Below the pieces are notes generated by a model. It worked only from the letters and a program-made list of their open reading frames with translations. It had not been told where the DNA came from and did no database searches. 64,000 nucleotides of DNA from Gammaproteobacteria bacterium (GTDB taxonomy: Bacteria; Pseudomonadota; Gammaproteobacteria; Poriferisulfidales; GCA-002705445), in contig JABGXU010000008.1 in assembly GCA_018675635.1 (NCBI GenBank), forward strand, positions 195,588 to 259,587, given 5' to 3'. How positions within the stretch are numbered: position 1 is the stretch's first letter; the number at the start of each line of letters is the position of its first letter. This document shows positions 5,488 to 56,240 of this stretch, one piece after another. Position numbers and translations under genes: made by a program.

Positions 5488-5942
5488 AAATAATTAAGGT
5501 TCTTGCAATTGACTATGGCGAAAAGAGAGTCGGGCTTGCTATAGGTGATTCAGAAAATAAGATTGCTATGCCATTAAAAACTATAAAAAATAATGGATAT
5601 GAAAATACTTGTAAAGAAATAGTTGATTTAGTAAAAGAGTGGGAAGTGAACAGAATTGTAATAGGACTGCCTGAAATTCACCCTGATCAAAAAATTAATA
5701 AGAAAATATCCCATTTTAGTAAAATTCTTAAAAAGAATGCGAATGTTAATATTATTTTTTATAATGAGGATTATTCTTCTAATTATGCTCAAACGGAGTT
5801 AACCAGCCAAATGAAAGTGGGTAGAAAAAAAAGTATTAATAAGGAAGAAATAGATAGAATTGCAGCCGCAATAATATTACAATCTTATTTTGAAAATGAA
5901 ATATTCAAAAACGCAGACACAAGATCTACTTCTAAAGATTGA
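5484..5942 (+). CDS. ruvX: Holliday junction resolvase-like YqgF/RuvX
   Basis: 152 aa; IKVLAIDYGEKRVGLAIGD N-terminal motif. Confidence 0.85.
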   Translation: MKIIKVLAIDYGEKRVGLAIGDSENKIAMPLKTIKNNGYENTCKEIVDLVKEWEVNRIVIGLPEIHPDQKINKKISHFSKILKKNANVNIIFYNEDYSSNYAQTELTSQMKVGRKKSINKEEIDRIAAAIILQSYFENEIFKNADTRSTSKD

Positions 5943-6405
5943 GAATTCTCTAAGGGATTATCTTTTAAATAACAATATCAAAAATCCAATTATAATAGGT
6001 GTGCATACTGGCGGCGCATGGATTGCTGATTGGTTGCAAAAATCTCTTGGTTTTGAAGGAAAAGCTGCTTCTTTAAATATAAGTTTTTATAGAGATGATT
6101 TTAGTAAAGTTGGAGTAAATCCAAGGGTTGATCCTACAGCAATGCCTGTTTCAGTAGATGATAAGCATGTTATTTTAGTTGATGATGTTCTATTTACTGG
6201 CAGAACAACAAGAGCAGCTATAAACGAAATATTTGATTTTGGAAGGCCGCTTTCAGTTACTTTAGTTGTGCTTGTAGAAAGGAATGGAAAAGAATTACCA
6301 ATTTCAGCAGATATTGTCGGTGAGAAATTAGAATTAGATAATAATAAAAATATTAAATTATTAGGTCCTGATCCAATGATTTTAGAAATTATTGATAAGG
6401 GATAA
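5890..6405 (+). CDS. pyrR: bifunctional pyrimidine operon regulator / uracil phosphoribosyltransferase PyrR
   Basis: IIIGVHTGGAW and PRPP-binding VILVDDVLFTGRTTRAA. The annotated start overlaps the ruvX 3' end by about 50 nt, and no in-frame start exists after the ruvX stop. Confidence 0.85.
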   Translation: MKMKYSKTQTQDLLLKIENSLRDYLLNNNIKNPIIIGVHTGGAWIADWLQKSLGFEGKAASLNISFYRDDFSKVGVNPRVDPTAMPVSVDDKHVILVDDVLFTGRTTRAAINEIFDFGRPLSVTLVVLVERNGKELPISADIVGEKLELDNNKNIKLLGPDPMILEIIDKG

Positions 6406-6422
6406 TATAAGAGGTAAATATT

Positions 6423-7409
6423 GTGAATGAAAAAGATGATATGGGCATAAAAAATAAAGAATTAAACCAACAAAATATCGTATCTCAGCAGCATCTCCGT
6501 CATTTTTTAGATATTGAGTATTTACCAAAATCATTGATTTTAGATATATTAGATTTAGCAGAATCATTTGCTGGAGTTTCTGGCCAACCAGTAAAAAAAG
6601 TTCCTCTATTGAGAGGAAAAACAATAGTTAACTTATTTTTTGAATCAAGCACAAGAACAAGAACAACTTTTGAATTAGCAGCAAAAAGACTTTCGGCAGA
6701 TATTTTAAATATAAATTTAGATTATAGTGCAACAAAAAAAGGTGAAACTTTATTAGATACCTTAAGAAATCTTCAAGCTATGCATTGTGATATGTTTATA
6801 GTTAGACACCCATCATCAGGGGCGGCAGAATTTATTTCAAAAAATGTATTACAAAATATTAGCGTTATAAATGCTGGAGATGGTAGACATGCTCATCCAA
6901 CGCAAGCAATGCTTGATATTTTTACAATCAGAAAGTATTTTTCAGATTTTACAAAAATTAAAGTTGCTATTGTAGGAGATATATTACACTCAAGAGTTGC
7001 TAGATCTTTAATGCATGCTTTAAGGATTCTTGAAGTGCCCGATGTAAGAGTTATTGCTCCCAAGACTTTATTACCAATTGGAATTGAAGATATGGGTGCA
7101 ACTTCTTATGTAAATATGGATGAAGGAATAAAAAATTGTAATGTAGTAATAATGCTGAGACTGCAAAATGAGAGGATGAATTCAAGCTTTATACCTAATG
7201 AGCACGAATATTATAATCTTTATGGGTTTACCCCAAGAAGATTAGATCTTTTGGCTAAAAATGGAATTGTAATGCATCCAGGACCTGTAAATAGGGGGGT
7301 AGAGATAAGTTCAGAAGTTGCAGATGGAGATAGATCTGTGATTCTACAACAGGTGTCAAATGGTATTGCAGTAAGAATGGCAATTTTATCTTTATCAATG
7401 CAGCCATAG
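6423..7409 (+). CDS. pyrB: aspartate carbamoyltransferase catalytic subunit
   Basis: GTG start; [15 protein letters not shown] and HPTQAMLD carbamoyl-phosphate/aspartate binding motifs. Confidence 0.95.
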
Positions 7410-7419
7410 CGGAGAAATA

Positions 7420-8697
7420 ATGAATGATATAATAATAAAATCAGGAATTCTTGTGAACCCAGGTGGAGAGATGTCTGGGGAACATGATATCTATATTAAA
7501 AATGGATATGTAGTTGGTATAGATGAAGATAATACTAAATTAAATTCTCCCATAATAATAGATGCTCAAGACTGTATCGTTTGCCCAGGTTTAATTGATC
7601 TTTCGGTTAGATTTAGAGAGCCAGGTTTAGAAAAAGAAGCTACAATAATTAGCGAATCTCATGCAGCTGTATCTTCAGGAGTTACAACAGTTTGCTATAT
7701 GCCAGATACTCAACCAGTTATAGATACACCTGCCCAAATTAAACTAGTGGAAGAAATTTTTAGTAGTGTTGGTTTATGTAATGTTAAGGTTTTAGCTGCA
7801 CTTACTAAAGGCCTTGATGGAGAAAGGCTTAGTCCTATGATGGAACTTAAAGAGGCTGGTGCTGTAGGATTAACTAACTGCCTTAACCCAATAAAGGATT
7901 CTTTAGTTTTGAGAAGAGCTATGGAATATGCGTCTGGTCAAGATATAACAGTATTTTATCAACCTCAAAACAATTATTTGGCTAACAATGGTTGTGTTCA
8001 TGAAGGTAAGATTGCAACAAAATTAGGATTGCCTGGAATTCCTTCTGCCGCTGAATCAGCTGCAGTCGCAGAAGCAATCTTATTAATGAAATTAACAGGA
8101 GTTAAGTTACATTTATGTAGAATATCTTGCCTTGAGTCTTTAATGATTATAAGGAATGCTCAAGCAGAAGGAATTCGTGTAACTGCAGATGTTGCGATAC
8201 ATCAATTATTTTTCGATGAAAATTCGATTAATAATTTTAATAGTGATTTTCATGTTATGCCGCCATTTAGAGCTAATGAAGATATGGTTGCTTTACAAAA
8301 ATCAATATCAGAAAATACGTTGACAGCAATTTGTTCTGATCATCAGCCCCATAATAAAGATGCCAAGCAGGCTCCGTTTTATAATACGCAGCCCGGAATT
8401 TCATCTATAGAATTATTACTTCCATTATTAATGGAACTAGTAAATTTAAATTTTCTAGATTTAAATACAGCAATTTCAAAAGTGACAATAAATCCTGCTA
8501 AAATTTTAGGTATAGAAGCTGGAATTATTCAAAAAGACTCTCAAGCTGATTTATGTATATTAAAAAAAGAAGAATGGCAATTAGAAGGAGATAAAATAAT
8601 AAGTTCTGGAAAAAATAACCCATATATTGGGAAAAAATTTAATATGGTTGTAGCTAAAACAATTTTTAAGGGGCAGATTGTTTATGAAAATAATTAA
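7420..8697 (+). CDS. pyrC': dihydroorotase-like protein PyrC' (probably non-catalytic ATCase structural partner)
   Basis: 425 aa amidohydrolase fold directly after pyrB. The metal-binding D-x-H-x-H is replaced by PGLIDLSVRFREPG (no His), as in pseudomonad PyrC'. Confidence 0.75.
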   Translation: MNDIIIKSGILVNPGGEMSGEHDIYIKNGYVVGIDEDNTKLNSPIIIDAQDCIVCPGLIDLSVRFREPGLEKEATIISESHAAVSSGVTTVCYMPDTQPVIDTPAQIKLVEEIFSSVGLCNVKVLAALTKGLDGERLSPMMELKEAGAVGLTNCLNPIKDSLVLRRAMEYASGQDITVFYQPQNNYLANNGCVHEGKIATKLGLPGIPSAAESAAVAEAILLMKLTGVKLHLCRISCLESLMIIRNAQAEGIRVTADVAIHQLFFDENSINNFNSDFHVMPPFRANEDMVALQKSISENTLTAICSDHQPHNKDAKQAPFYNTQPGISSIELLLPLLMELVNLNFLDLNTAISKVTINPAKILGIEAGIIQKDSQADLCILKKEEWQLEGDKIISSGKNNPYIGKKFNMVVAKTIFKGQIVYENN

Positions 8698-8727
8698 ACT
8701 TAACCAATTTTAATTAGGGAAGTAATT

Positions 8728-9594
8728 TTGAAAGATTCATCAATATATATAGAAAATGCTAAAGTTTTAAATCATCAGCATATGGAAGGTGGTCAGCATA
8801 TAATTAGGTTAGAAAGTGAAAAATGCTCACAGTATGCAAAACCCGGAATGTTTATTCATTTAAAATGTGATGAGAATACTTTAATGCGAAGACCTTTTTC
8901 AGTTATGAGAGCATCAAAAGAAGAAAAATGGATTGAAATTTTGTATAAAACTTTTGGGCATGGCACTAATTCACTTAAATTAGTTGAAGTTGGTGACACA
9001 TTGAATTATATGGGACCTATTGGCAATGGGTTTTCATTAAGTAAAAAAAAAACTATTCCACTTTTAATTGGTGGTGGTGTAGGAATACCTCCGTTAATAT
9101 TTCTTGCTAGCGAAATAAAAGAATTTTGTAATTTTAAACCAATAATATTTTTTGGGTCAGAAGTAACTTTTCCTTTTAAATATTTTCCATCAAAATATAT
9201 GATAAAAGATTTTTTGCCTGAGGTAACAGCTTCTCCAGATTTTATAGAGGCAATGGGATTTGTATCAAGATTAGCTTCGCAACAAGATTACCCTGGCTGT
9301 TATAAAGGCTTTATTCATGAGCTTGCTGAACATTGGATTAAAACTTTAAATACAGATCAATTAGATAAAGTTTGTATATATTCATGTGGACCAACTCCAA
9401 TGTTAGAGGCTGTATCATTAGTAGCTCGAAAATATAAAATTGATTGTCAAATATGTATAGAAGAGCATATGGCTTGTGCAGTTGGCGGTTGTGCAGGTTG
9501 CATTGTTAAAATTAAGGATAATAATAAGATTGTTTCAAAAAGAGTTTGCGTAGATGGCCCAGTATTTAAATCAAGTACAATTTATTATGAATGA
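8728..9594 (+). CDS. PyrK-family FAD/NAD(P)-binding oxidoreductase with C-terminal [2Fe-2S] motif (dihydroorotate dehydrogenase electron-transfer subunit homolog, orphan)
   Basis: RPFSV flavin motif, MGPIGNGF, IGGGVGIPPL, and C-terminal CAVGGCAGC...C...DGPVF, all matching PyrK. No pyrD-B partner in the window. Confidence 0.7.
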   Translation: MKDSSIYIENAKVLNHQHMEGGQHIIRLESEKCSQYAKPGMFIHLKCDENTLMRRPFSVMRASKEEKWIEILYKTFGHGTNSLKLVEVGDTLNYMGPIGNGFSLSKKKTIPLLIGGGVGIPPLIFLASEIKEFCNFKPIIFFGSEVTFPFKYFPSKYMIKDFLPEVTASPDFIEAMGFVSRLASQQDYPGCYKGFIHELAEHWIKTLNTDQLDKVCIYSCGPTPMLEAVSLVARKYKIDCQICIEEHMACAVGGCAGCIVKIKDNNKIVSKRVCVDGPVFKSSTIYYE

Positions 9595-10273
9595 GATTGA
9601 AAATAATATTTTAAATATTAAAAAAAATATTATTAAAGCTGAATTAAATTCAAGTAGAAAAGAAAATAGTGTTATTTTAATGGCTGTTAGTAAAACACAA
9701 TCCGTAGAAAAAATTAAGCATGCCTATAATGCTGGGCAAAAGGACTTTGGTGAAAATTATTTACAAGAAGCTGTAAAAAAAATTTTAGAATTAAAAAATT
9801 TTGATATTATTTGGCACTATATTGGTAAAATTCAGGGTAATAAAGCAAAATTAATTGCGGATAATTTTGATTGGGTTCATAGCGCTGACAAAATTTCAAC
9901 TCTTATAAAAATTGATAATTATAGAAATAAGTTAGAAAAAAATCTTAATGTTTGCATACAGGTAAATATTGATAATGAAGAATCTAAATCTGGCATTGAA
10001 ATTAAAAATATTGAAGAGTTTTTAGAATCTACACATAACCTTCAAAATATTAATATTAGGGGATTAATGGCTATACCTCAATATCAAGAAAGTTTTGAAG
10101 ATCAATTTAATACATTTAAAAGGCTTCAGGATTTATTTAATAACCTTGTAAAAAAAGGATATAAATTAGATACTCTATCAATTGGAATGAGTTCAGATTA
10201 TCATGCAGCTATAGAAGCAGGATCTACAATTATAAGAATTGGTACAGCAATATTTGGTGAAAGAATAAAATGA
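9587..10273 (+). CDS. yggS: PLP homeostasis protein YggS (alanine racemase-fold PLP-binding)
   Basis: Start taken at 9587 (MNEIENN). ILMAVSKTQ, FGENYLQE, HYIGKIQGNKAK motifs. Conserved yggS-proC-yggT order. Confidence 0.85.
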   Translation: MNEIENNILNIKKNIIKAELNSSRKENSVILMAVSKTQSVEKIKHAYNAGQKDFGENYLQEAVKKILELKNFDIIWHYIGKIQGNKAKLIADNFDWVHSADKISTLIKIDNYRNKLEKNLNVCIQVNIDNEESKSGIEIKNIEEFLESTHNLQNINIRGLMAIPQYQESFEDQFNTFKRLQDLFNNLVKKGYKLDTLSIGMSSDYHAAIEAGSTIIRIGTAIFGERIK

Positions 10274-14082: not shown

Positions 14083-14481
14083 ATGACTAATTATACGGAT
14101 AAAGAATTTATGTACATAACAGAAACTGTTATGAGGATTTTAGATACTTGGAACCTTACAACCCAGCAAATGGTTTTAGTTATAGGACTTCCAACTCAAA
14201 CTAAGAAAAGACAGCTAGATAAATTCAGATCTCTAAAAGCTTTTCCAAAGGATGATCTAATTATAAAAAGGCTAAGTCATATAGTAGGAATATCTGATGC
14301 ACTACGAACTTCATTTCCAAGAAATGAAAATATGTCAGAAAAATGGTTAAAAACACAACATAGGAGATTTGATAATGAGACCCCTTTGTCTGTTATATTG
14401 GAGCAAGGGGTGGATGGACTATGTAAAGTAAGATCTGAATTAGATTGCACTTTTGCATGGGATACATCTGTACAAATTTAA
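14083..14481 (+). CDS. Xre/MbcA/ParS-like antitoxin-domain (DUF2384-like) protein
   Basis: The C-terminus WLKTQHRRFDNETPLSVILEQGVDGLCKVRSEL fits the W..(n)..P..L(L/I)..G...V..L pattern of the DUF2384 toxin-binding domain. The N-terminal region LTTQQMVLVIGLPTQTKKRQLDKF is HTH-like. Confidence 0.5.
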   Translation: MTNYTDKEFMYITETVMRILDTWNLTTQQMVLVIGLPTQTKKRQLDKFRSLKAFPKDDLIIKRLSHIVGISDALRTSFPRNENMSEKWLKTQHRRFDNETPLSVILEQGVDGLCKVRSELDCTFAWDTSVQI

Positions 14482-14493
14482 TCAATTAATATT

Positions 14494-15006
14494 ATGAAAA
14501 AACTTTACACAATAAAAAATTCAAAATTACATGGAAAAGGGTTATTTGCTAATTGCAACATAAAAGCCGAAACAAATATTGTTGAGTACGTTGGTGAAAA
14601 AATAACAAAAGCACAATCAGAGAAAATATCTGATATACAACTAAAAAAATCTCAAAAAAATAAAGATGAAGGGCAAGTATATATTTTCACATTAAATAAT
14701 AAATATGATATTAACGGCAATGTAAATTATAACAAAGCTAGATTAATGAATCATTCATGTAATTCTAATTGTGATACCGATATAATTGATAATAAAATTT
14801 GGATAAGATCGTATAAAGATATTAAGAAAGGTGAAGAATTGACATATGATTATGGTTTTACTTTTGATAAAGATGATTTTAGAGATCACATTTGTAAATG
14901 TGGGTCAAGAAAATGTGTAGGATTTATTGTAACTGAAACAGACTGGAAAAAGCTAAGAAAGTTTCTGTTAAAGCTAGCTAAAAATTGTTTAAAAACTAAC
15001 GAATAA
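14494..15006 (+). CDS. SET-domain protein-lysine N-methyltransferase
   Basis: GKGLFA (GxG), RLMNHSCNSNC (NHSC), ELTYDYGF (catalytic Tyr) and post-SET CKCGSRKC. Lies 12 bp downstream of the preceding ORF. Confidence 0.85.
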   Translation: MKKLYTIKNSKLHGKGLFANCNIKAETNIVEYVGEKITKAQSEKISDIQLKKSQKNKDEGQVYIFTLNNKYDINGNVNYNKARLMNHSCNSNCDTDIIDNKIWIRSYKDIKKGEELTYDYGFTFDKDDFRDHICKCGSRKCVGFIVTETDWKKLRKFLLKLAKNCLKTNE

Positions 15007-16940: not shown

Positions 16941-18449
16941 CTATTTCACAAGTGGAGGAACCATACCATGGTGAAATATGTATGCTACACCGTAAGCTAT
17001 TGGAGCTATAACTACAAATAAACCAATAGCATATAGAAATGCAAGTTTACCCATGCCTTTTAATTTACTGAAATCAGTTATTACTCCGATGCTAACGAAA
17101 GTAAGCATAAACATCATTTTTCTCATAGGGCTTTGAACAACATTAGCTCCAACTGACGCAGCATCTTTTACATCTGGCGCTAAAATAATAATTAATAAAT
17201 AAAAAAACCAGGTTATAAAATAACCAATCACAAATTTTGGAAAGCGAAACCAAATTTCTGATAAAGGCACATTACTTCCAACCGACCTTTTTTCAACTTT
17301 GTACATCCATATTAAAGCCAATATAAACGCCCAAACACCAATAAAGACATCTATCCATATTTTAGTTAATACGGCAGCAGCAAGTATCCAATCCTCTTGC
17401 CATTGTTCTCCTGTTTCTTTTAGATGTTGGCTAACCATTATTTCATCTAATATTGCTCCTGCAGCCGCATCTGCGCCATCTGTTTTAACAGTCATGCCCA
17501 TAGCAGCACCATTTACTATTGGCTCATTAGGTGCAACAGCTGCATAAAAACCTGGCAATACCACTAATTCAAGCATTGCAAATATTACTATTAACATCGA
17601 AAGGGCTATAGGCAAAATGGGTTTTGCACGAATTGCGCCAGCTGTTGCAATTGCTGCAGAAACTCCACATATTGAAATACCAGATGACAGAACTGCTGCG
17701 GCGTCTCGACTAAGCTTAAATAATCTTCGCGATATAAAATATATAATTGGCCAAAATAAAAGATATGCTACAAAAACTGCGGCTGCACCAGTTAGAGCTA
17801 GATCTATTGCAAAACCTGTTGCTCTCATAGACATTAAGCCAAGCTTTATTCCAAGATAAACAATTGCTGTTTTAATAAACCATTCTGGTTTTGCTGATTC
17901 TCGTAAAAACTTTGCCAAATTTTTAAAAAAATTTCCTATTATTAATCCAATAGCTAAAGCTAGCATATAAGAAAAACCACCACCCAATTGTAACCCCCAT
18001 GTTAAATTATATTTTTCAAAATAATTTTTTCCTTTTACAATGGCATCAACAGATTTGAAGTGTGCTTCATGACCTACAATCCAGCATAGCCATGTAATAA
18101 AAAATATAATGGTGAACCCAAAAAAGAATTTTTTTACATCAAGTTTTTGAAAGTAAGCACCAATGCATGTAATAAATGTAAAAATAAAATAAGTGAAAAA
18201 TAATGAAACTAGAGGATGTAATTGCGCATAGTATTTTGTAGATGGTTTAAGCAACTTTGCCCATGAAAAATTAGACATAAGATCAGTCCATTCCCAAGTT
18301 TTTACTTTTGTCATCCATCCTACTAGGTCAATATCCCAGATAGTAAAAAGTCCTGCAAAAAACATTATTAAACCTAACCAGACTGCCCACCAGTCTTCTG
18401 TTCGCAGCATGCCATCTGACCATTTTCTATTAATATTTTCCATATTCAT
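16941..18449 (-). CDS. YeiH/UPF0324-family putative transporter with ~150-aa N-terminal membrane extension
   Basis: 502-aa polytopic membrane protein. LSSGISICGVSAAIATAGAI resembles the conserved GSSICGASA motif of the YeiH putative sulfate exporter family. Confidence 0.5.
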   Translation of the reverse strand: MNMENINRKWSDGMLRTEDWWAVWLGLIMFFAGLFTIWDIDLVGWMTKVKTWEWTDLMSNFSWAKLLKPSTKYYAQLHPLVSLFFTYFIFTFITCIGAYFQKLDVKKFFFGFTIIFFITWLCWIVGHEAHFKSVDAIVKGKNYFEKYNLTWGLQLGGGFSYMLALAIGLIIGNFFKNLAKFLRESAKPEWFIKTAIVYLGIKLGLMSMRATGFAIDLALTGAAAVFVAYLLFWPIIYFISRRLFKLSRDAAAVLSSGISICGVSAAIATAGAIRAKPILPIALSMLIVIFAMLELVVLPGFYAAVAPNEPIVNGAAMGMTVKTDGADAAAGAILDEIMVSQHLKETGEQWQEDWILAAAVLTKIWIDVFIGVWAFILALIWMYKVEKRSVGSNVPLSEIWFRFPKFVIGYFITWFFYLLIIILAPDVKDAASVGANVVQSPMRKMMFMLTFVSIGVITDFSKLKGMGKLAFLYAIGLFVVIAPIAYGVAYIFHHGMVPPLVK

Positions 18450-18712
18450 ATATCAAAAATTAATATTCTGTTGAAATAGTGTGAATGATATTGATGAAGC
18501 CACTTCGGGAATGTGGAAAAATCATAAACCATATTAACTTTTATTTTTTTTCCTTTTTCTTTTATTAGTAAATTAGTTAGCGTTATTTTAATTTTATCAT
18601 CTAGATCAGTAATCTCTTTTGCTTTCAATTTCAAGAAATTATTTTTCGCAAACCAATAATTATTATTATGGCTAATTTGTAATTCTGTATTTATTACTAG
18701 TATTGTCTTCAT
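18446..18712 (-). CDS. hypothetical 88-aa protein, translationally coupled (ATGA) on both sides
   Basis: ORF start overlaps the stop of the upstream 54-aa ORF. Its stop overlaps the ATG of the YeiH-like gene. Confidence 0.45.
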   Translation of the reverse strand: MKTILVINTELQISHNNNYWFAKNNFLKLKAKEITDLDDKIKITLTNLLIKEKGKKIKVNMVYDFSTFPKWLHQYHSHYFNRILIFDI

Positions 18713-18873
18713 AATACTAACAAGTTTATTAAAATACCGAGAATAATTAAACCAATAATGGCAATTAGGATACTATAGATTACTAGTTTTGATTCCCAGC
18801 TTTCCCATGGTTCTGGGTTACTTAGTAATTCTTGCGCAGACTCTAATTCAATAGATTTTACTTTATCTTTCAT
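18709..18873 (-). CDS. unannotated 54-aa single-TM peptide (MKDKVKSIELESAQELLSNPEPWESWESKLVIYSILIAIIGLIILGILINLLVL)
   Basis: Translated by hand from the - strand. GAGG lies 9 nt upstream of the ATG. The stop TGA overlaps the ATG of the 88-aa ORF. It is below the ORF-track length cutoff. Confidence 0.5.
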   Translation of the reverse strand: MKDKVKSIELESAQELLSNPEPWESWESKLVIYSILIAIIGLIILGILINLLVL

Positions 18874-19012
18874 TTTTAAAAACCTCATAAAGTACTTTAT
18901 ATAATATATGGAAAAATTTGCTAAATTAACAAATTTTTCTTATAGAGTAGTTTAATATGAATAGCATAAAAGTTAGATATGCTAAAGATTTTTTTTAATA
19001 GAATATTATAAA

Positions 19013-19088
19013 TGGTGGCTCGGGGCAGAATTGAACTGCCGACACGAGGATTTTCAGTCCACTGCTCTACCAACTGAGCTACCAAGCC
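19013..19088 (-). tRNA. tRNA-Phe (GAA)
   Basis: Reverse complement reads GGCTTGGTAGCTCAGTTGGTAGAGCAGTGGACTGAAAATCC...TTCAATTCTGCCCCGAGCCACCA. It has a 7-bp acceptor stem, a GAA anticodon in a CTGAAAA loop, a T-loop GTTCAATTC and an encoded CCA. Confidence 0.95.
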
Positions 19089-19276
19089 GTTATTCATTTA
19101 TAATTCATTATGAAAAAAGTGAGTATACACTAATGTATTAATAGATGAAGTTATGTTTTTAATGATAAATTTTTTTATATTTTTTCATCAATATGAAATA
19201 TATTAGATATTCATTATATTCGAATAATGGTATTTATTATAAATATTCAGTGAGTTTTTTTTATTTCTAAATTAAT

Positions 19277-19540
19277 TTATTTTGGTTTAAATTCCTTAGG
19301 GAGCTCTGAACCTCTGCCAAATAAAAATTTTTCCATTTCTTCTTCTAAAAAAGTTCTAGCTTTTGGTTCCATAGGTGTCAGTCTATTTTCATTAATAAGC
19401 ATGGTCATATGCTTCACCCAAAGAGCCCATGCTTCTTTCGAAATATTTTCAAAAATTTTTTTACCTAATTCTCCAGGATATGTAGGTCTATCTAAACCTC
19501 CCAACTCTTTATTAAGCATTAAACAATTTACAGTACGCAT
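19277..19540 (-). CDS. yggX: Fe(II)-trafficking / oxidative damage protection protein YggX
   Basis: 87 aa; [21 protein letters not shown]...MLINE matches the YggX family. Confidence 0.85.
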
Positions 19541-42838: not shown

Positions 42839-43774
42839 GTGTCAATAAACGTTTTTTTATCAAATAAACTACCACTAAAAAAGGATAATATTTTATCAAT
42901 AATATCTTTTGATAATAAAGTAGAACATAATTCCGATATATTGATAACAGGAGTTCCATCTTTAAACGGAAAAAAAATTTATGAGATATGGGAAGTCAAA
43001 GAAAATGTTAAGCAATTAAAATACAATAATATAAATATATCCCAAACAAAGGATTATTTATTTGGAATTTCTATAATTAAAAATTCTGGGACATACGAGG
43101 AGATAAAATTAGAGATACAAAAGGAATATACTAATTTTTTTGAGTTTTCAAAAAAAAATGAAATGAAATTAGTAAAAATTTGGCACTATATTCCTGATCT
43201 ATTAAAAGTTTACAAAAATAAGAAAACAAATTACTCATTACTATGCGAAGCTAGAGAAAATGCATACAAAGTGCATTATAAAAATTTTAATTATCCTGCG
43301 GCGACAGTAATCGGAACAAATAGTGACAAAATATTAATTTATTTTTTTTCAGCTCTTTGTAATAAATACAAAGCCATTGAAAATAGTAGGCAAATAAGCT
43401 CATATAATTATCCTCAAAATATTTTTTTAGAAAGGCCGATGTTTTCAAGGGCTGTAAGCTTCCAATTATTAAATGAACCCCAAAAACAAACAATGATATC
43501 TGGAACAGCTAGTATTAGAGGATATGAGTCTGTTTATAAAAAAAATGTTTTAAATCAATTAAATGAGGCAATTGAAAATTATAAAACATTTATGACTCTA
43601 GATAGTACAGTTACTAATGTCTGCAGAGTTTATATATCAAAATCGCAAAGTGCTAATTTAAAATTTATTACGGAAATGTTAGATAAGGTTATTGGCAGTG
43701 AAAATTATGTTCTTTTAAAAGGCGTCATATGTAGGGAAGAATTATTAGTAGAAATTGAAGGTATTATGAAGTGA
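42839..43774 (+). CDS. tandem RidA/YjgF-fold protein, possibly FkbO/Hyg5/XanB2-type chorismatase
   Basis: 311 aa; C-terminal ...VLLKGVICREELLVEIEGI is the RidA-type tail; the length and two-domain layout fit the chorismatase family. Tentative. Confidence 0.4.
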   Translation: MSINVFLSNKLPLKKDNILSIISFDNKVEHNSDILITGVPSLNGKKIYEIWEVKENVKQLKYNNINISQTKDYLFGISIIKNSGTYEEIKLEIQKEYTNFFEFSKKNEMKLVKIWHYIPDLLKVYKNKKTNYSLLCEARENAYKVHYKNFNYPAATVIGTNSDKILIYFFSALCNKYKAIENSRQISSYNYPQNIFLERPMFSRAVSFQLLNEPQKQTMISGTASIRGYESVYKKNVLNQLNEAIENYKTFMTLDSTVTNVCRVYISKSQSANLKFITEMLDKVIGSENYVLLKGVICREELLVEIEGIMK

Positions 43775-51280: not shown

Positions 51281-52024
51281 ATGTTAGATTATAAAGATAA
51301 AATTAGAGAAAAATATAAAAAAATACTTTTTATTCATGGTTGGGGAGTAACAGATAAGATTTGGATAAATTTTGCTAAAAAATTTTTTTATCTCGATACT
51401 TGCCACTTTCTTAATTTATATAGTTATATTGAGGGTTCCAATGGTGATCTCAAAATTGCCGCAAAAAAGGTTCTAAATGATTACGAGGATGTAGATTTAA
51501 TAGTTTCATGGTCTTTAGGTTGTTTTCTTGCAAAGGAAATAGAGAAAATAAGTAAATCTAGCACTAAAGCAATAATTTATATTTCTTATGCACCAACATT
51601 TATGAAAAGCAAAGAATGGGATTTTGGTTTTGAAAAAAATACCATTATAAAATTGAAGAAAGAATTAAAAAACAACAAAGAAAAGGCTTTAAAAAATTTT
51701 TATTTATTAATAATTGGGCAAGTAGTTAACAAAAAAAATGTATATAAGGAAATAATATCTAATATTAATGAAATGAATTATGTAAGCTTGAAAACTTTAA
51801 ACCTTGGGTTAGATATTATACAAAATTCTAATTACAAAGATTTTGCCACAAATAAAAAAATAAAAAATCTATATATATATGGTGATGACGATAATATAAC
51901 ACCTAAAAATAATATAAAATTATTAGAGCCTTTGTCTACTGTAAAGGTTTTACCTTGTTCTTCGCATATTCCTTTTCTAAGTAATAGTGACGAATTTTTT
52001 AAAATTATAAATGAGTTTATGTAA
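51281..52024 (+). CDS. bioH: pimeloyl-ACP methyl ester esterase BioH (alpha/beta hydrolase)
   Basis: ILFIHGWG and SWSLG nucleophile elbow; followed by bioC. Confidence 0.7.
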   Translation: MLDYKDKIREKYKKILFIHGWGVTDKIWINFAKKFFYLDTCHFLNLYSYIEGSNGDLKIAAKKVLNDYEDVDLIVSWSLGCFLAKEIEKISKSSTKAIIYISYAPTFMKSKEWDFGFEKNTIIKLKKELKNNKEKALKNFYLLIIGQVVNKKNVYKEIISNINEMNYVSLKTLNLGLDIIQNSNYKDFATNKKIKNLYIYGDDDNITPKNNIKLLEPLSTVKVLPCSSHIPFLSNSDEFFKIINEFM

Positions 52025-55052: not shown

Positions 55053-56240
55053 ATGAAAAAGTTTTTGATTAATATTAGATATTTTTTAACACCATTGTTA
55101 ATATTTTTAACGGCTATAAGTATAATTATTGGAGGAACATATTGTTGGCTTGGATTATCATTATTAGTTTCATCAATTCTTATTGATTGGGTATCAAGCA
55201 AATTAAGTTTTTGTAATGCACAAGCAGCTGGTACTGATGAAAATGGTGAAAACTATGGCATAGAAAGTTTGTTAAAAACTATGATGTGGTTTCAGTATCC
55301 TGTGTTTGTAGTCATACAATTAGCATTAGCATATAGAGTTTATAGCTATATAAATCATATTGATTTTGAGGTTATAAGTCTTTATGGGTTACCAATACAA
55401 ATGGGTACAACTGGAGCAGAATTAGTAGGTGCAGCTATTTCTTCTGGTATTATTCTTGGTCTTGGAATTATGTTTGGCCATGAGCTTGCTCATACAAAAG
55501 GCCCTACATTCATATTATCAAGATGGATGATGGCGCTAACTGGAATAGCGCATTTTTGTTATGCGCATGTTTATAACCACCATCTAGAACTTGGGTGTGA
55601 AGATGATCCTGCGACTGCACCTAGGGGAAGAACTATTTATTCTCATTGGTTACTTTCTCATTTTGGACAGTCAAGATTCCTTTACGTAATGGAGCAACAT
55701 CGTCTCCAGAGATTAGGAAAACCATTTTTGTCTTTTAGCAATAGATGGCTAAGAGGATATGCAATGAGTTTGCCTACTATATTTTTATTTTGGTTTATTG
55801 GAGGGTGGGTAGGATTACTTATAATGTTGATAACATGGATTATTTCTTCATTTGAATTAGAGGTTTTAAATTATTTAGAGCACTATGGATTAATTAGAGA
55901 GACAGGTTCTCCAATTGACTATAGGCATTCTTGGGATGTTCACAGCTCTCCTTGGACTCAATGGGGTTTTATAGAAATTGGTTTACAGGCCGATCATCAT
56001 GATAGAGGTGAAACTCACTTCTGGGAATTAAATAAATGTGATGCACCTGATACTGGTCTAGGTTATTACGCCATGTTATCAATGATAATAGTGCCGCCAG
56101 TTTGGGAATCTTTTATAAAACCACATCTAGCAAAATGGGACGAAGAAAGAGCTTCTGAGGGCGAGAAAATTATTGCAGGAAAGATGAATTACAAAGCAGG
56201 TTGGACAGACATGCCGTTATGCGAAGGGAGTGAAAAATGA
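55053..56240 (+). CDS. AlkB/XylM-like integral-membrane di-iron hydroxylase (fatty acid desaturase superfamily)
   Basis: His boxes HELAHTK, HVYNHH, NYLEHYGL and LQADHHD arranged as in alkane-1-monooxygenases. The third box is divergent. Confidence 0.65.
   Translation: MKKFLINIRYFLTPLLIFLTAISIIIGGTYCWLGLSLLVSSILIDWVSSKLSFCNAQAAGTDENGENYGIESLLKTMMWFQYPVFVVIQLALAYRVYSYINHIDFEVISLYGLPIQMGTTGAELVGAAISSGIILGLGIMFGHELAHTKGPTFILSRWMMALTGIAHFCYAHVYNHHLELGCEDDPATAPRGRTIYSHWLLSHFGQSRFLYVMEQHRLQRLGKPFLSFSNRWLRGYAMSLPTIFLFWFIGGWVGLLIMLITWIISSFELEVLNYLEHYGLIRETGSPIDYRHSWDVHSSPWTQWGFIEIGLQADHHDRGETHFWELNKCDAPDTGLGYYAMLSMIIVPPVWESFIKPHLAKWDEERASEGEKIIAGKMNYKAGWTDMPLCEGSEK

Follow-up and report, generated by a model that had tools for sequence, protein, structure and literature searches.

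What is the function of a gene for a PyrK-like electron-transfer protein that has no dihydroorotate dehydrogenase (DHODH) gene next to it? The question is raised by the 64,000-nucleotide stretch of gammaproteobacterial DNA analysed here (hereinafter the window; 29 % GC), in which such a gene belongs to a same-strand array consisting of rsmE, gshB, ruvX, pyrR, pyrB, pyrC', pyrK, yggS, proC, yggT, metX and metW. An earlier note had regarded the gene as an orphan reductase inserted between pyrC' and yggS.

The gene and its predicted product

The open reading frame is genuine. It starts with TTG, ends with a TGA stop codon (9592-9594) and encodes a protein of 288 amino acids (Table 1). The NCBI gene call on contig JABGZH010000024.1 (assembly GCA_018674775.1; positions 18433-19299 of our locus L218) has an identical 288-aa product, and in the alignment the N-terminus lines up with the N-termini of the homologues. 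A scan of the window detected no terminator between the genes, a search for promoters told us little in DNA so rich in AT (59 promoter-like sites vs 56 expected), and an Rfam scan of the window yielded one tRNA as the only match.

Table 1 Features of the pyrR-yggS region of the window and of the pyrK product
Feature	Position	Strand	Basis and remarks
pyrR	5890..6405	+	Pfam, NCBIfam
pyrB, aspartate carbamoyltransferase catalytic chain	6423..7409	+	Pfam, NCBIfam
pyrC', dihydroorotase-like pseudoenzyme	7420..8697	+	Pfam, NCBIfam, alignment; HxH metal ligands replaced by S-V-R
pyrC'-pyrK spacer	8698..8727	+	Read from sequence; 30 nt
Shine-Dalgarno-like AGGGAAG	8716..8722	+	Read from sequence; 5 nt before the pyrK TTG
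pyrK (insertion-clade PyrK), predicted FAD/NADH/[2Fe-2S] electron-transfer subunit of class 1B DHODH	8728..9594	+	Pfam, NCBIfam, PDB sequence and fold matches
RRPFSV, residues 54-59, FNR-type FAD-binding R-x-x-S motif	8887..8904	+	R55, P56 and S58 invariant in 57 family members
GPIGNGF (96-102) to GGGVGIPP (115-122), start of NAD-binding domain	9013..9093	+	Alignment, including that to 1ep1_B
Clade-specific segment, residues 146-179, 'PFPF..PS...'	9163..9264	+	34 residues vs ~17 in canonical PyrK
C-terminal [2Fe-2S] domain, PF10418	9445..9591	+	Pfam, alignment
[2Fe-2S] ligand cysteines C250, C255, C258, C274	9475-9477, 9490-9492, 9499-9501, 9547-9549	+	
yggS	9587..10273	+	Likely ATG at 9587; 8-nt overlap with the pyrK stop (ATGAATGA)

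The C-terminal part of the protein matches the Pfam family DHODB_Fe-S_bind (PF10418; E 7e-15, 54.9 bits vs a cut-off of 23.9), and the best NCBIfam matches are PyrK models, with three PyrK equivalogs (131-140 bits) among the top four. The scores of the PyrK equivalogs NF000796-NF000799 (140, 131.5, 130.7 and 86.8 bits) lie under the respective cut-offs (314, 219, 270 and 224), and the match is split into two stretches because of a clade-specific insertion. The NfnA/SudB-type 'sulfide/dihydroorotate dehydrogenase-like' model NF004862 scores 103 bits, below its cut-off of 220. The top PDB sequence match is PyrK of L. lactis (1ep1_B, E 1.8e-25, again in two stretches). An AF2 model of the window protein (57 homologues; pLDDT 88.9, pTM 0.84) has PyrK as its closest PDB fold (5ksw_B, E 4.6e-21, TMt 0.78), with the small subunits of NfnI, Xfn and sulfhydrogenase coming next; the predicted structure combines a three-domain FNR-like fold with the C-terminal DHODB Fe-S domain, as expected of a PyrK.

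The FAD (RxxS) and NAD (GGGxGxPP) motifs are both present and invariant across 57 relatives, as is the C250-x4-C255-x2-C258...C274 cluster, which is aligned with the ligand cysteines of the L. lactis protein. The GGGVGIPP segment is followed by an invariant G143-S144-E145, and the acidic residue that ends strand 2 suggests a preference for NADH. The earlier note had assigned the protein to the PyrK family by RPFSV, MGPIGNGF and C-x4-C-x2-C...C, and this assignment stands: RRPFS (54-58), GPIGNGF (96-102) and the cysteine motif are all present and family-invariant. Judged by its sequence, the window protein is an intact PyrK-family flavoprotein with FAD, NAD and four-cysteine [2Fe-2S] motifs that is predicted to be cofactor-competent.

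PyrK of L. lactis (chain B of PDB entries 1EP1, 1EP3 and 5KSW) has the same FAD barrel, NAD-binding and C-terminal [2Fe-2S] domains and shares RxxS, GPxGxGF, GGGxGxPP, the acidic residue after strand 2 and C-x4-C-x2-C...C with the window protein, although the two are only 26-27 % identical and the window protein is ~17 residues longer in the NAD-binding domain. In the window family, the segment 'SRLAS..PGC' replaces 'ATDDGS.G' of canonical PyrK. Unlike its L. lactis counterpart, the window gene follows pyrB-pyrC' instead of preceding pyrD, and its product falls under the NCBIfam PyrK cut-offs.

When 1.84 billion cluster representatives were searched with a profile, three groups could be told apart: full-length family members at >280 bits, canonical PyrKs at ~190-200 bits over two stretches, and a group intermediate between them; in the alignment, the canonical proteins are devoid of the family's 17 extra residues. 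In a neighbor-joining tree, the window family and the insertion-bearing intermediates form a clade apart from canonical PyrKs (91/100 bootstrap). We class the window protein as a PyrK from this insertion-bearing, proteobacterial sub-clade. A deeper member of this clade, P0202, is encoded in a classical pyrC-pyrK-pyrD operon, and its neighbour is a class 1B PyrD (NF005574, 348 bits vs a cut-off of 269). Two more clade members, P0214 and P0200, are encoded after pyrR-pyrB-pyrC without an adjoining pyrD. At the locus of P0214 (L085, 353-6921), DUF1538, P-II and 133-aa genes are located between pyrC and pyrK, and at that of P0200 (L091, 3978-10026), an EF-G-like gene overlaps the pyrK stop.

The same comparisons bear on the idea that the protein is a reductase for an unrelated enzyme, namely the FA_desaturase/AlkB-like protein encoded at 55053-56240 or a GltD/NfnB-like partner, both of which the earlier note had named. 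NfnA-type relatives pair with GltD-like subunits, and a membrane desaturase-family gene is indeed present in the window; furthermore, the fold is shared with NfnA, SudB and the sulfhydrogenase gamma subunit (PDB 5JCA_S, 4YLF_A and 9NEZ_C), with comparable Foldseek scores. However, these proteins score lower in sequence searches (64 and 59 bits vs 93 for PyrK against PDB; 103 vs 140 against NCBIfam), and the tree groups the window protein with a pyrD-linked PyrK. The desaturase gene lies at a distance of 46 kb, with no conserved link in annotated related loci, and neither a GltD-like nor a hydrogenase partner was seen near any family member with annotated neighbours. We thus regard a reductase role for either enzyme as highly improbable.

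Linkage to pyrB and pyrC'

More than 8000 homologues are present in the protein database; the best 120 are ~290 aa long and 45-56 % identical to the window protein, a range exceeded only by two nearly identical entries with 99 % and 89 %. Where named, the homologues are annotated as 'dihydroorotate dehydrogenase electron transfer subunit' and come from Gammaproteobacteria/Pseudomonadota, and existing public annotation pipelines name the protein correctly. One family member is carried by Cycloclasticus metagenome-assembled genomes (MAGs). A scan of one genome per species yielded at least 600 matching stretches, at least 592 of them encoding a relative. The best 80 loci are mostly gammaproteobacterial (Sedimenticolaceae, Steroidobacteraceae, Thiodiazotropha, Thiohalomonas, Thiogranum, Thiotrichales and a Legionellales MAG) and include that of an isolate, Sedimenticola selenatireducens DSM 17993.

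Among the 83 loci with usable sequence, 55 have pyrK immediately behind pyrC' and 24 have it immediately behind pyrB, 79 altogether; frequently the gap is short or the stop and start codons overlap. No pyrD was found within 10 kb at any of the 83. An adjoining pyrD, which is typical of pyrK without strictly defining it, was seen only for the deeper clade member P0202. The 24 pyrB-pyrK loci, from Steroidobacteraceae and others (e.g., L021, L026, L036, L043 and L078), contain neither pyrC' nor pyrR, so that the most constant neighbour of pyrK is pyrB rather than pyrC'. The remaining four loci comprise one at a contig edge and three in which the gene is near ruvX, pilT/pilU or hemH. At L066 (3871-5408), ruvX immediately precedes the PyrK gene, and pyrB and pyrC' are missing from the site; P0175 (442 aa) is a single ORF that fuses RuvX to a PyrK-like protein, possibly through a gene-calling or frameshift artefact.

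The earlier note had taken pilT/pilU to be the alternative occupants of this site in pseudomonads. They are not, since in other genomes the PyrK gene has pilT/pilU as its neighbours, often just downstream on the other strand. What is peculiar to this streamlined genome is the adjacency of pyrK and yggS; elsewhere pilT/pilU or other genes intervene. With the order pyrB-(pyrC')-pyrK conserved at 79 of the 83 loci, from hundreds of species, the descriptions 'orphan' and 'inserted' do not fit: the gene is neither an orphan nor an insertion peculiar to this genome but part of an arrangement common to hundreds of Gammaproteobacteria. The genes from gshB to yggT form a conserved block that shows synteny throughout the class. 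In the literature searched, no paper discusses a gammaproteobacterial PyrK that is pyrB-linked or an orphan.

The gene upstream of pyrK encodes a 425-aa protein that the alignment identifies as the pseudo-dihydroorotase PyrC', the HxH motif being missing in all 56 homologues compared. A second amidohydrolase/DHOase-like gene (L221, 20435-21026; 444 aa, cut by the locus end) lies ~9.4 kb past the right end of the window and may encode an active dihydroorotase complementing the inactive PyrC'.

The Bacillus-type pyr operon has the order pyrR-pyrP-pyrB-pyrC-carAB-pyrK-pyrD-pyrF-pyrE. The window shares with it the relative order of pyrR, pyrB, a type I pyrC-like gene and pyrK, and the P0202 locus retains pyrC-pyrK-pyrD. 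In contrast to the Bacillus-type operon, the pyrC' of the window is inactive, carAB is absent, and pyrD-B has apparently moved off as a solitary gene, which in several lineages is found beside a SpoU methylase gene.

Several other genes of the window deserve mention. A cytochrome c oxidase operon is present, and the organism is aerobic. The genes at 14083-15006 encode a protein of 132 aa, the C-terminal domain of which is of the Xre/MbcA/ParS antitoxin type, and after it a 170-aa SET-domain protein, with no obvious toxin gene; a similar, weakly matching Xre_MbcA_ParS_C gene occurs downstream of yggT at locus L002. A 247-aa ORF at 51281-52024, adjoining a methyltransferase gene, has no Pfam match at E <= 1e-5. 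Unusual for a streamlined genome is a protein of 311 aa (42839-43774) whose N-terminal domain is of the FkbO/Hyg5-like chorismatase type.

The proposed dihydroorotate dehydrogenase partner

Neither Pfam scans of ~45 genes nor tblastn searches with class 2 and class 1B PyrD detected a DHO_dh gene in the window, in agreement with the earlier note that no pyrD-B adjoins the gene. The note had also considered a pyrD-B immediately outside the window; no pyrD of any class was seen in the 10 kb beyond either end or, with the window included, in the 84 kb examined altogether. The class 2 query, an approximate E. coli sequence, matched nothing in the window or among the ORFs of the family loci.

Genes for class 1B PyrD are nevertheless present in Gammaproteobacteria that carry the PyrK family, where the statement in the note that this class of bacteria normally uses the class 2 enzyme is inapplicable. 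The best 120 matches to the PyrD encoded next to P0202 are nearly all 60-68 % identical to it and ~321 aa long, with no low-GC sequence among them. Those that are named are mostly gammaproteobacterial (Thiohalomonas denitrificans, Sulfuriflexus mobilis, Thioalbus denitrificans, Ectothiorhodospiraceae bacterium BW-2, Granulosicoccaceae and Gammaproteobacteria MAGs), and four of these relatives score 374-377 bits with NF005574, above the cut-off of 269. In the Thiohalomonas denitrificans isolate and in another gammaproteobacterial MAG, pyrD-B is solitary, with pyrK absent within 7 kb. A MAG assigned to T. denitrificans encodes a pyrC'-linked PyrK (L022); this co-occurrence holds at the level of one named species, PyrD-B coming from the isolate assembly and PyrK from the MAG. 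Metagenome contigs scanned with an AT-biased DNA pattern yielded 120 pyrD-B loci, some of them at 31-36 % GC and the low-GC ones mostly marine, none of which was attributable to this organism; on three low-GC contigs, pyrD-B adjoins a SpoU methylase gene.

The gammaproteobacterial class 1B pyrD is repeatedly located divergently to a SpoU-family methylase gene (L093, 6421-7966; L095, 6244-7966; L131, L145 and L198). In T. denitrificans, the arrangement is secB-gpsA-SpoU, followed by pyrD on the opposite strand.

Within the same lineages, the 'orphan' PyrK and the 'orphan' PyrD-B thus complement each other. A class 1B DHODH with split genes is the simplest reading, and we consider it probable that the window gene encodes PyrK of an NAD-linked enzyme of this class, with the catalytic pyrD-B gene elsewhere in the genome. 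PyrD-B, carrying FMN and encoded at a separate locus, would oxidise dihydroorotate to orotate, and the electrons would pass from its FMN to the [2Fe-2S] cluster of PyrK (C250/C255/C258/C274), then to the FAD of PyrK and finally to NAD+. Under this scenario, the ancestral pyrC-pyrK-pyrD block would have been split in this gammaproteobacterial lineage, such that pyrK remained with pyrR-pyrB-pyrC', with which it would be co-expressed, and pyrD-B turned into a solitary gene. For this genome, we infer the presence of pyrD-B, the formation of a PyrK-PyrD-B heterotetramer and the use of NAD+ as the acceptor. A partner DHODH encoded elsewhere, one of the suggestions of the earlier note, is thus the best supported of these through the solitary class 1B pyrD of Gammaproteobacteria with the family, although none was found in the 84 kb of this genome.

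Counting against the split-gene class 1B enzyme, no pyrD-B was seen within the 84 kb, and the organism may have a class 2 PyrD or no PyrD-B; the PyrK equivalog scores (87-140 bits) are under the cut-offs (219-314); 79 of the 83 loci tie the gene to pyrB or pyrC' and none to pyrD; and cofactor-less or motif-decayed relatives persist after pyrC', so that the family may have another role.

The first of these points could mean that PyrK works without a class 1B PyrD, either as an NAD(P)H-dependent reductase for a class 2 (quinone) DHODH or as a stand-alone NADH:acceptor oxidoreductase. The absence of pyrD of any class from the 84 kb would be compatible with this, and class 1B DHODH has been reported mainly in anaerobes (PMC12846827) whereas the organism, with its cytochrome c oxidase operon, is aerobic, so that a class 2 enzyme is conceivable here. 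However, the characterised fold relatives that were found (PyrK, the NfnI small subunit, Xfn and sulfhydrogenase gamma) are all subunits of complexes, the clade includes the pyrK-pyrD operon of P0202, and PyrD-B of the gamma type is itself found as an orphan in need of a PyrK. We also know of no precedent for a class 2 DHODH that uses PyrK. Taken together, these considerations make a PyrK without PyrD-B very unlikely.

Truncated and decayed relatives

Some family representatives, 232-255 aa in length, end exactly where the Fe-S domain should start (P0192 and P0215; also P0189, P0206, P0222, P0234, P0250, P0280, P0290, P0291, P0324 and P0327). In these proteins the whole [2Fe-2S] domain is absent and the RxxS and GGGxGxxP motifs are decayed; the best-conserved parts are the clade-specific insertion and the 'SRLAS..PGC' segment that follows it. 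At both loci examined (L087, 7001-7741; L088, 7001-7753), the truncated gene is located directly after pyrC', its product has no Pfam match, and the next gene leaves no space for the lost Fe-S domain. A profile of the truncated variants mostly retrieved full-length members.

Decay is also seen in a sister lineage of the window genome, represented by a marine metagenome contig (L086, 30 % GC), whose PyrC' and YggS are 77.5 % and 62 % identical to those of the window. Its PyrK-like ORF (1357-2205; P0212) is intact, with 282 codons, but only 47 % identical to the window PyrK: the reading frame is open, and the FAD (RRPFS), NAD (GGGVGIPP) and Fe-S (Cys-cluster) motifs are decayed. The persistence of such motif-decayed and truncated copies implies that the redox role is dispensable in some lineages; they could reflect slow decay after replacement of DHODH-B.

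One may ask whether the window gene is itself a decaying relic, a pseudogene in the making without function, as the earlier note had allowed. The decayed motifs of the sister lineage and of several truncated relatives could be taken to favour this. Nevertheless, the 288-codon ORF is intact in DNA of 29 % GC, all motifs are invariant and kept in relatives of 89 % and 56 % identity, and the genome is streamlined and tightly packed. Among full-length lineages, PyrK is 46-48 % identical to that of the window as against 42-43 % for PyrC'. That the gene is a relic is extremely improbable.

The linkage data allow another interpretation, in which the main role of PyrK would be non-catalytic or regulatory, as a third partner in the class A aspartate carbamoyltransferase complex (ATCase; PyrB/PyrC') or in a pyrimidine metabolon, its cofactors being vestigial or serving as a redox/NADH sensor. 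The gene is found directly behind pyrC' (55) or pyrB (24) at 79 of the 83 loci, with short gaps or overlaps; truncated relatives without the Fe-S domain and the FAD and NAD motifs stay coupled to pyrC', with the insertion best conserved; and the sister lineage keeps an intact ORF despite its decayed cofactor motifs. Such a fate would parallel that of PyrC', a dead dihydroorotase retained as a structural subunit. On the other hand, the window protein and most of its relatives keep every cofactor ligand invariant, as would be expected if selection acts on the redox chemistry, and a solitary PyrD-B occurs in complementary fashion in the same lineages. Moreover, with the gshB-yggT block syntenic class-wide, the adjacency may partly reflect ancestry, and to our knowledge no ATCase has a PyrK-like subunit. 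We therefore consider this interpretation unlikely.

PyrC' of the Pseudomonas-type ATCase is a pseudoenzyme that was retained as a structural subunit. By analogy, a similar course might apply to the truncated and decayed PyrK relatives only, which have lost cofactor residues and kept their place in the pyrB operon; unlike PyrC', the window PyrK retains all cofactor motifs. It is conceivable, although rather doubtful, that PyrKs of the pyrB-pyrC'-linked clade have acquired a further function that is not redox in nature and resides in the insertion, for example, docking to the ATCase/PyrC' complex or, as a scaffold, to PyrD. Such a function, if real, would outlast the Fe-S domain and the FAD and NAD motifs and would explain the retention of cofactor-less 232-255-aa copies and of the decayed full-length copy of the sister lineage after pyrC', and PyrK would be turning into a pseudoenzyme in a repeat of the history of PyrC'. 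In any case, the decayed and truncated copies amount to a natural experiment on the loss or repurposing of a redox subunit.

With respect to the locus itself, the split-gene reading corrects a tempting misreading: the gene would be one half of a class 1B DHODH with separated genes, not a stray reductase. For genome annotation, it follows that pyrK and pyrD-B should be sought genome-wide and not as neighbours, and that the PyrK equivalog models miss this clade. Class 1B DHODH is commonly presented as belonging to Firmicutes, Archaea and anaerobes. The distribution described here points to an NAD-linked class 1B DHODH that is widespread in Gammaproteobacteria and, if the reading holds for this genome, would extend the enzyme to an aerobic, streamlined marine lineage.
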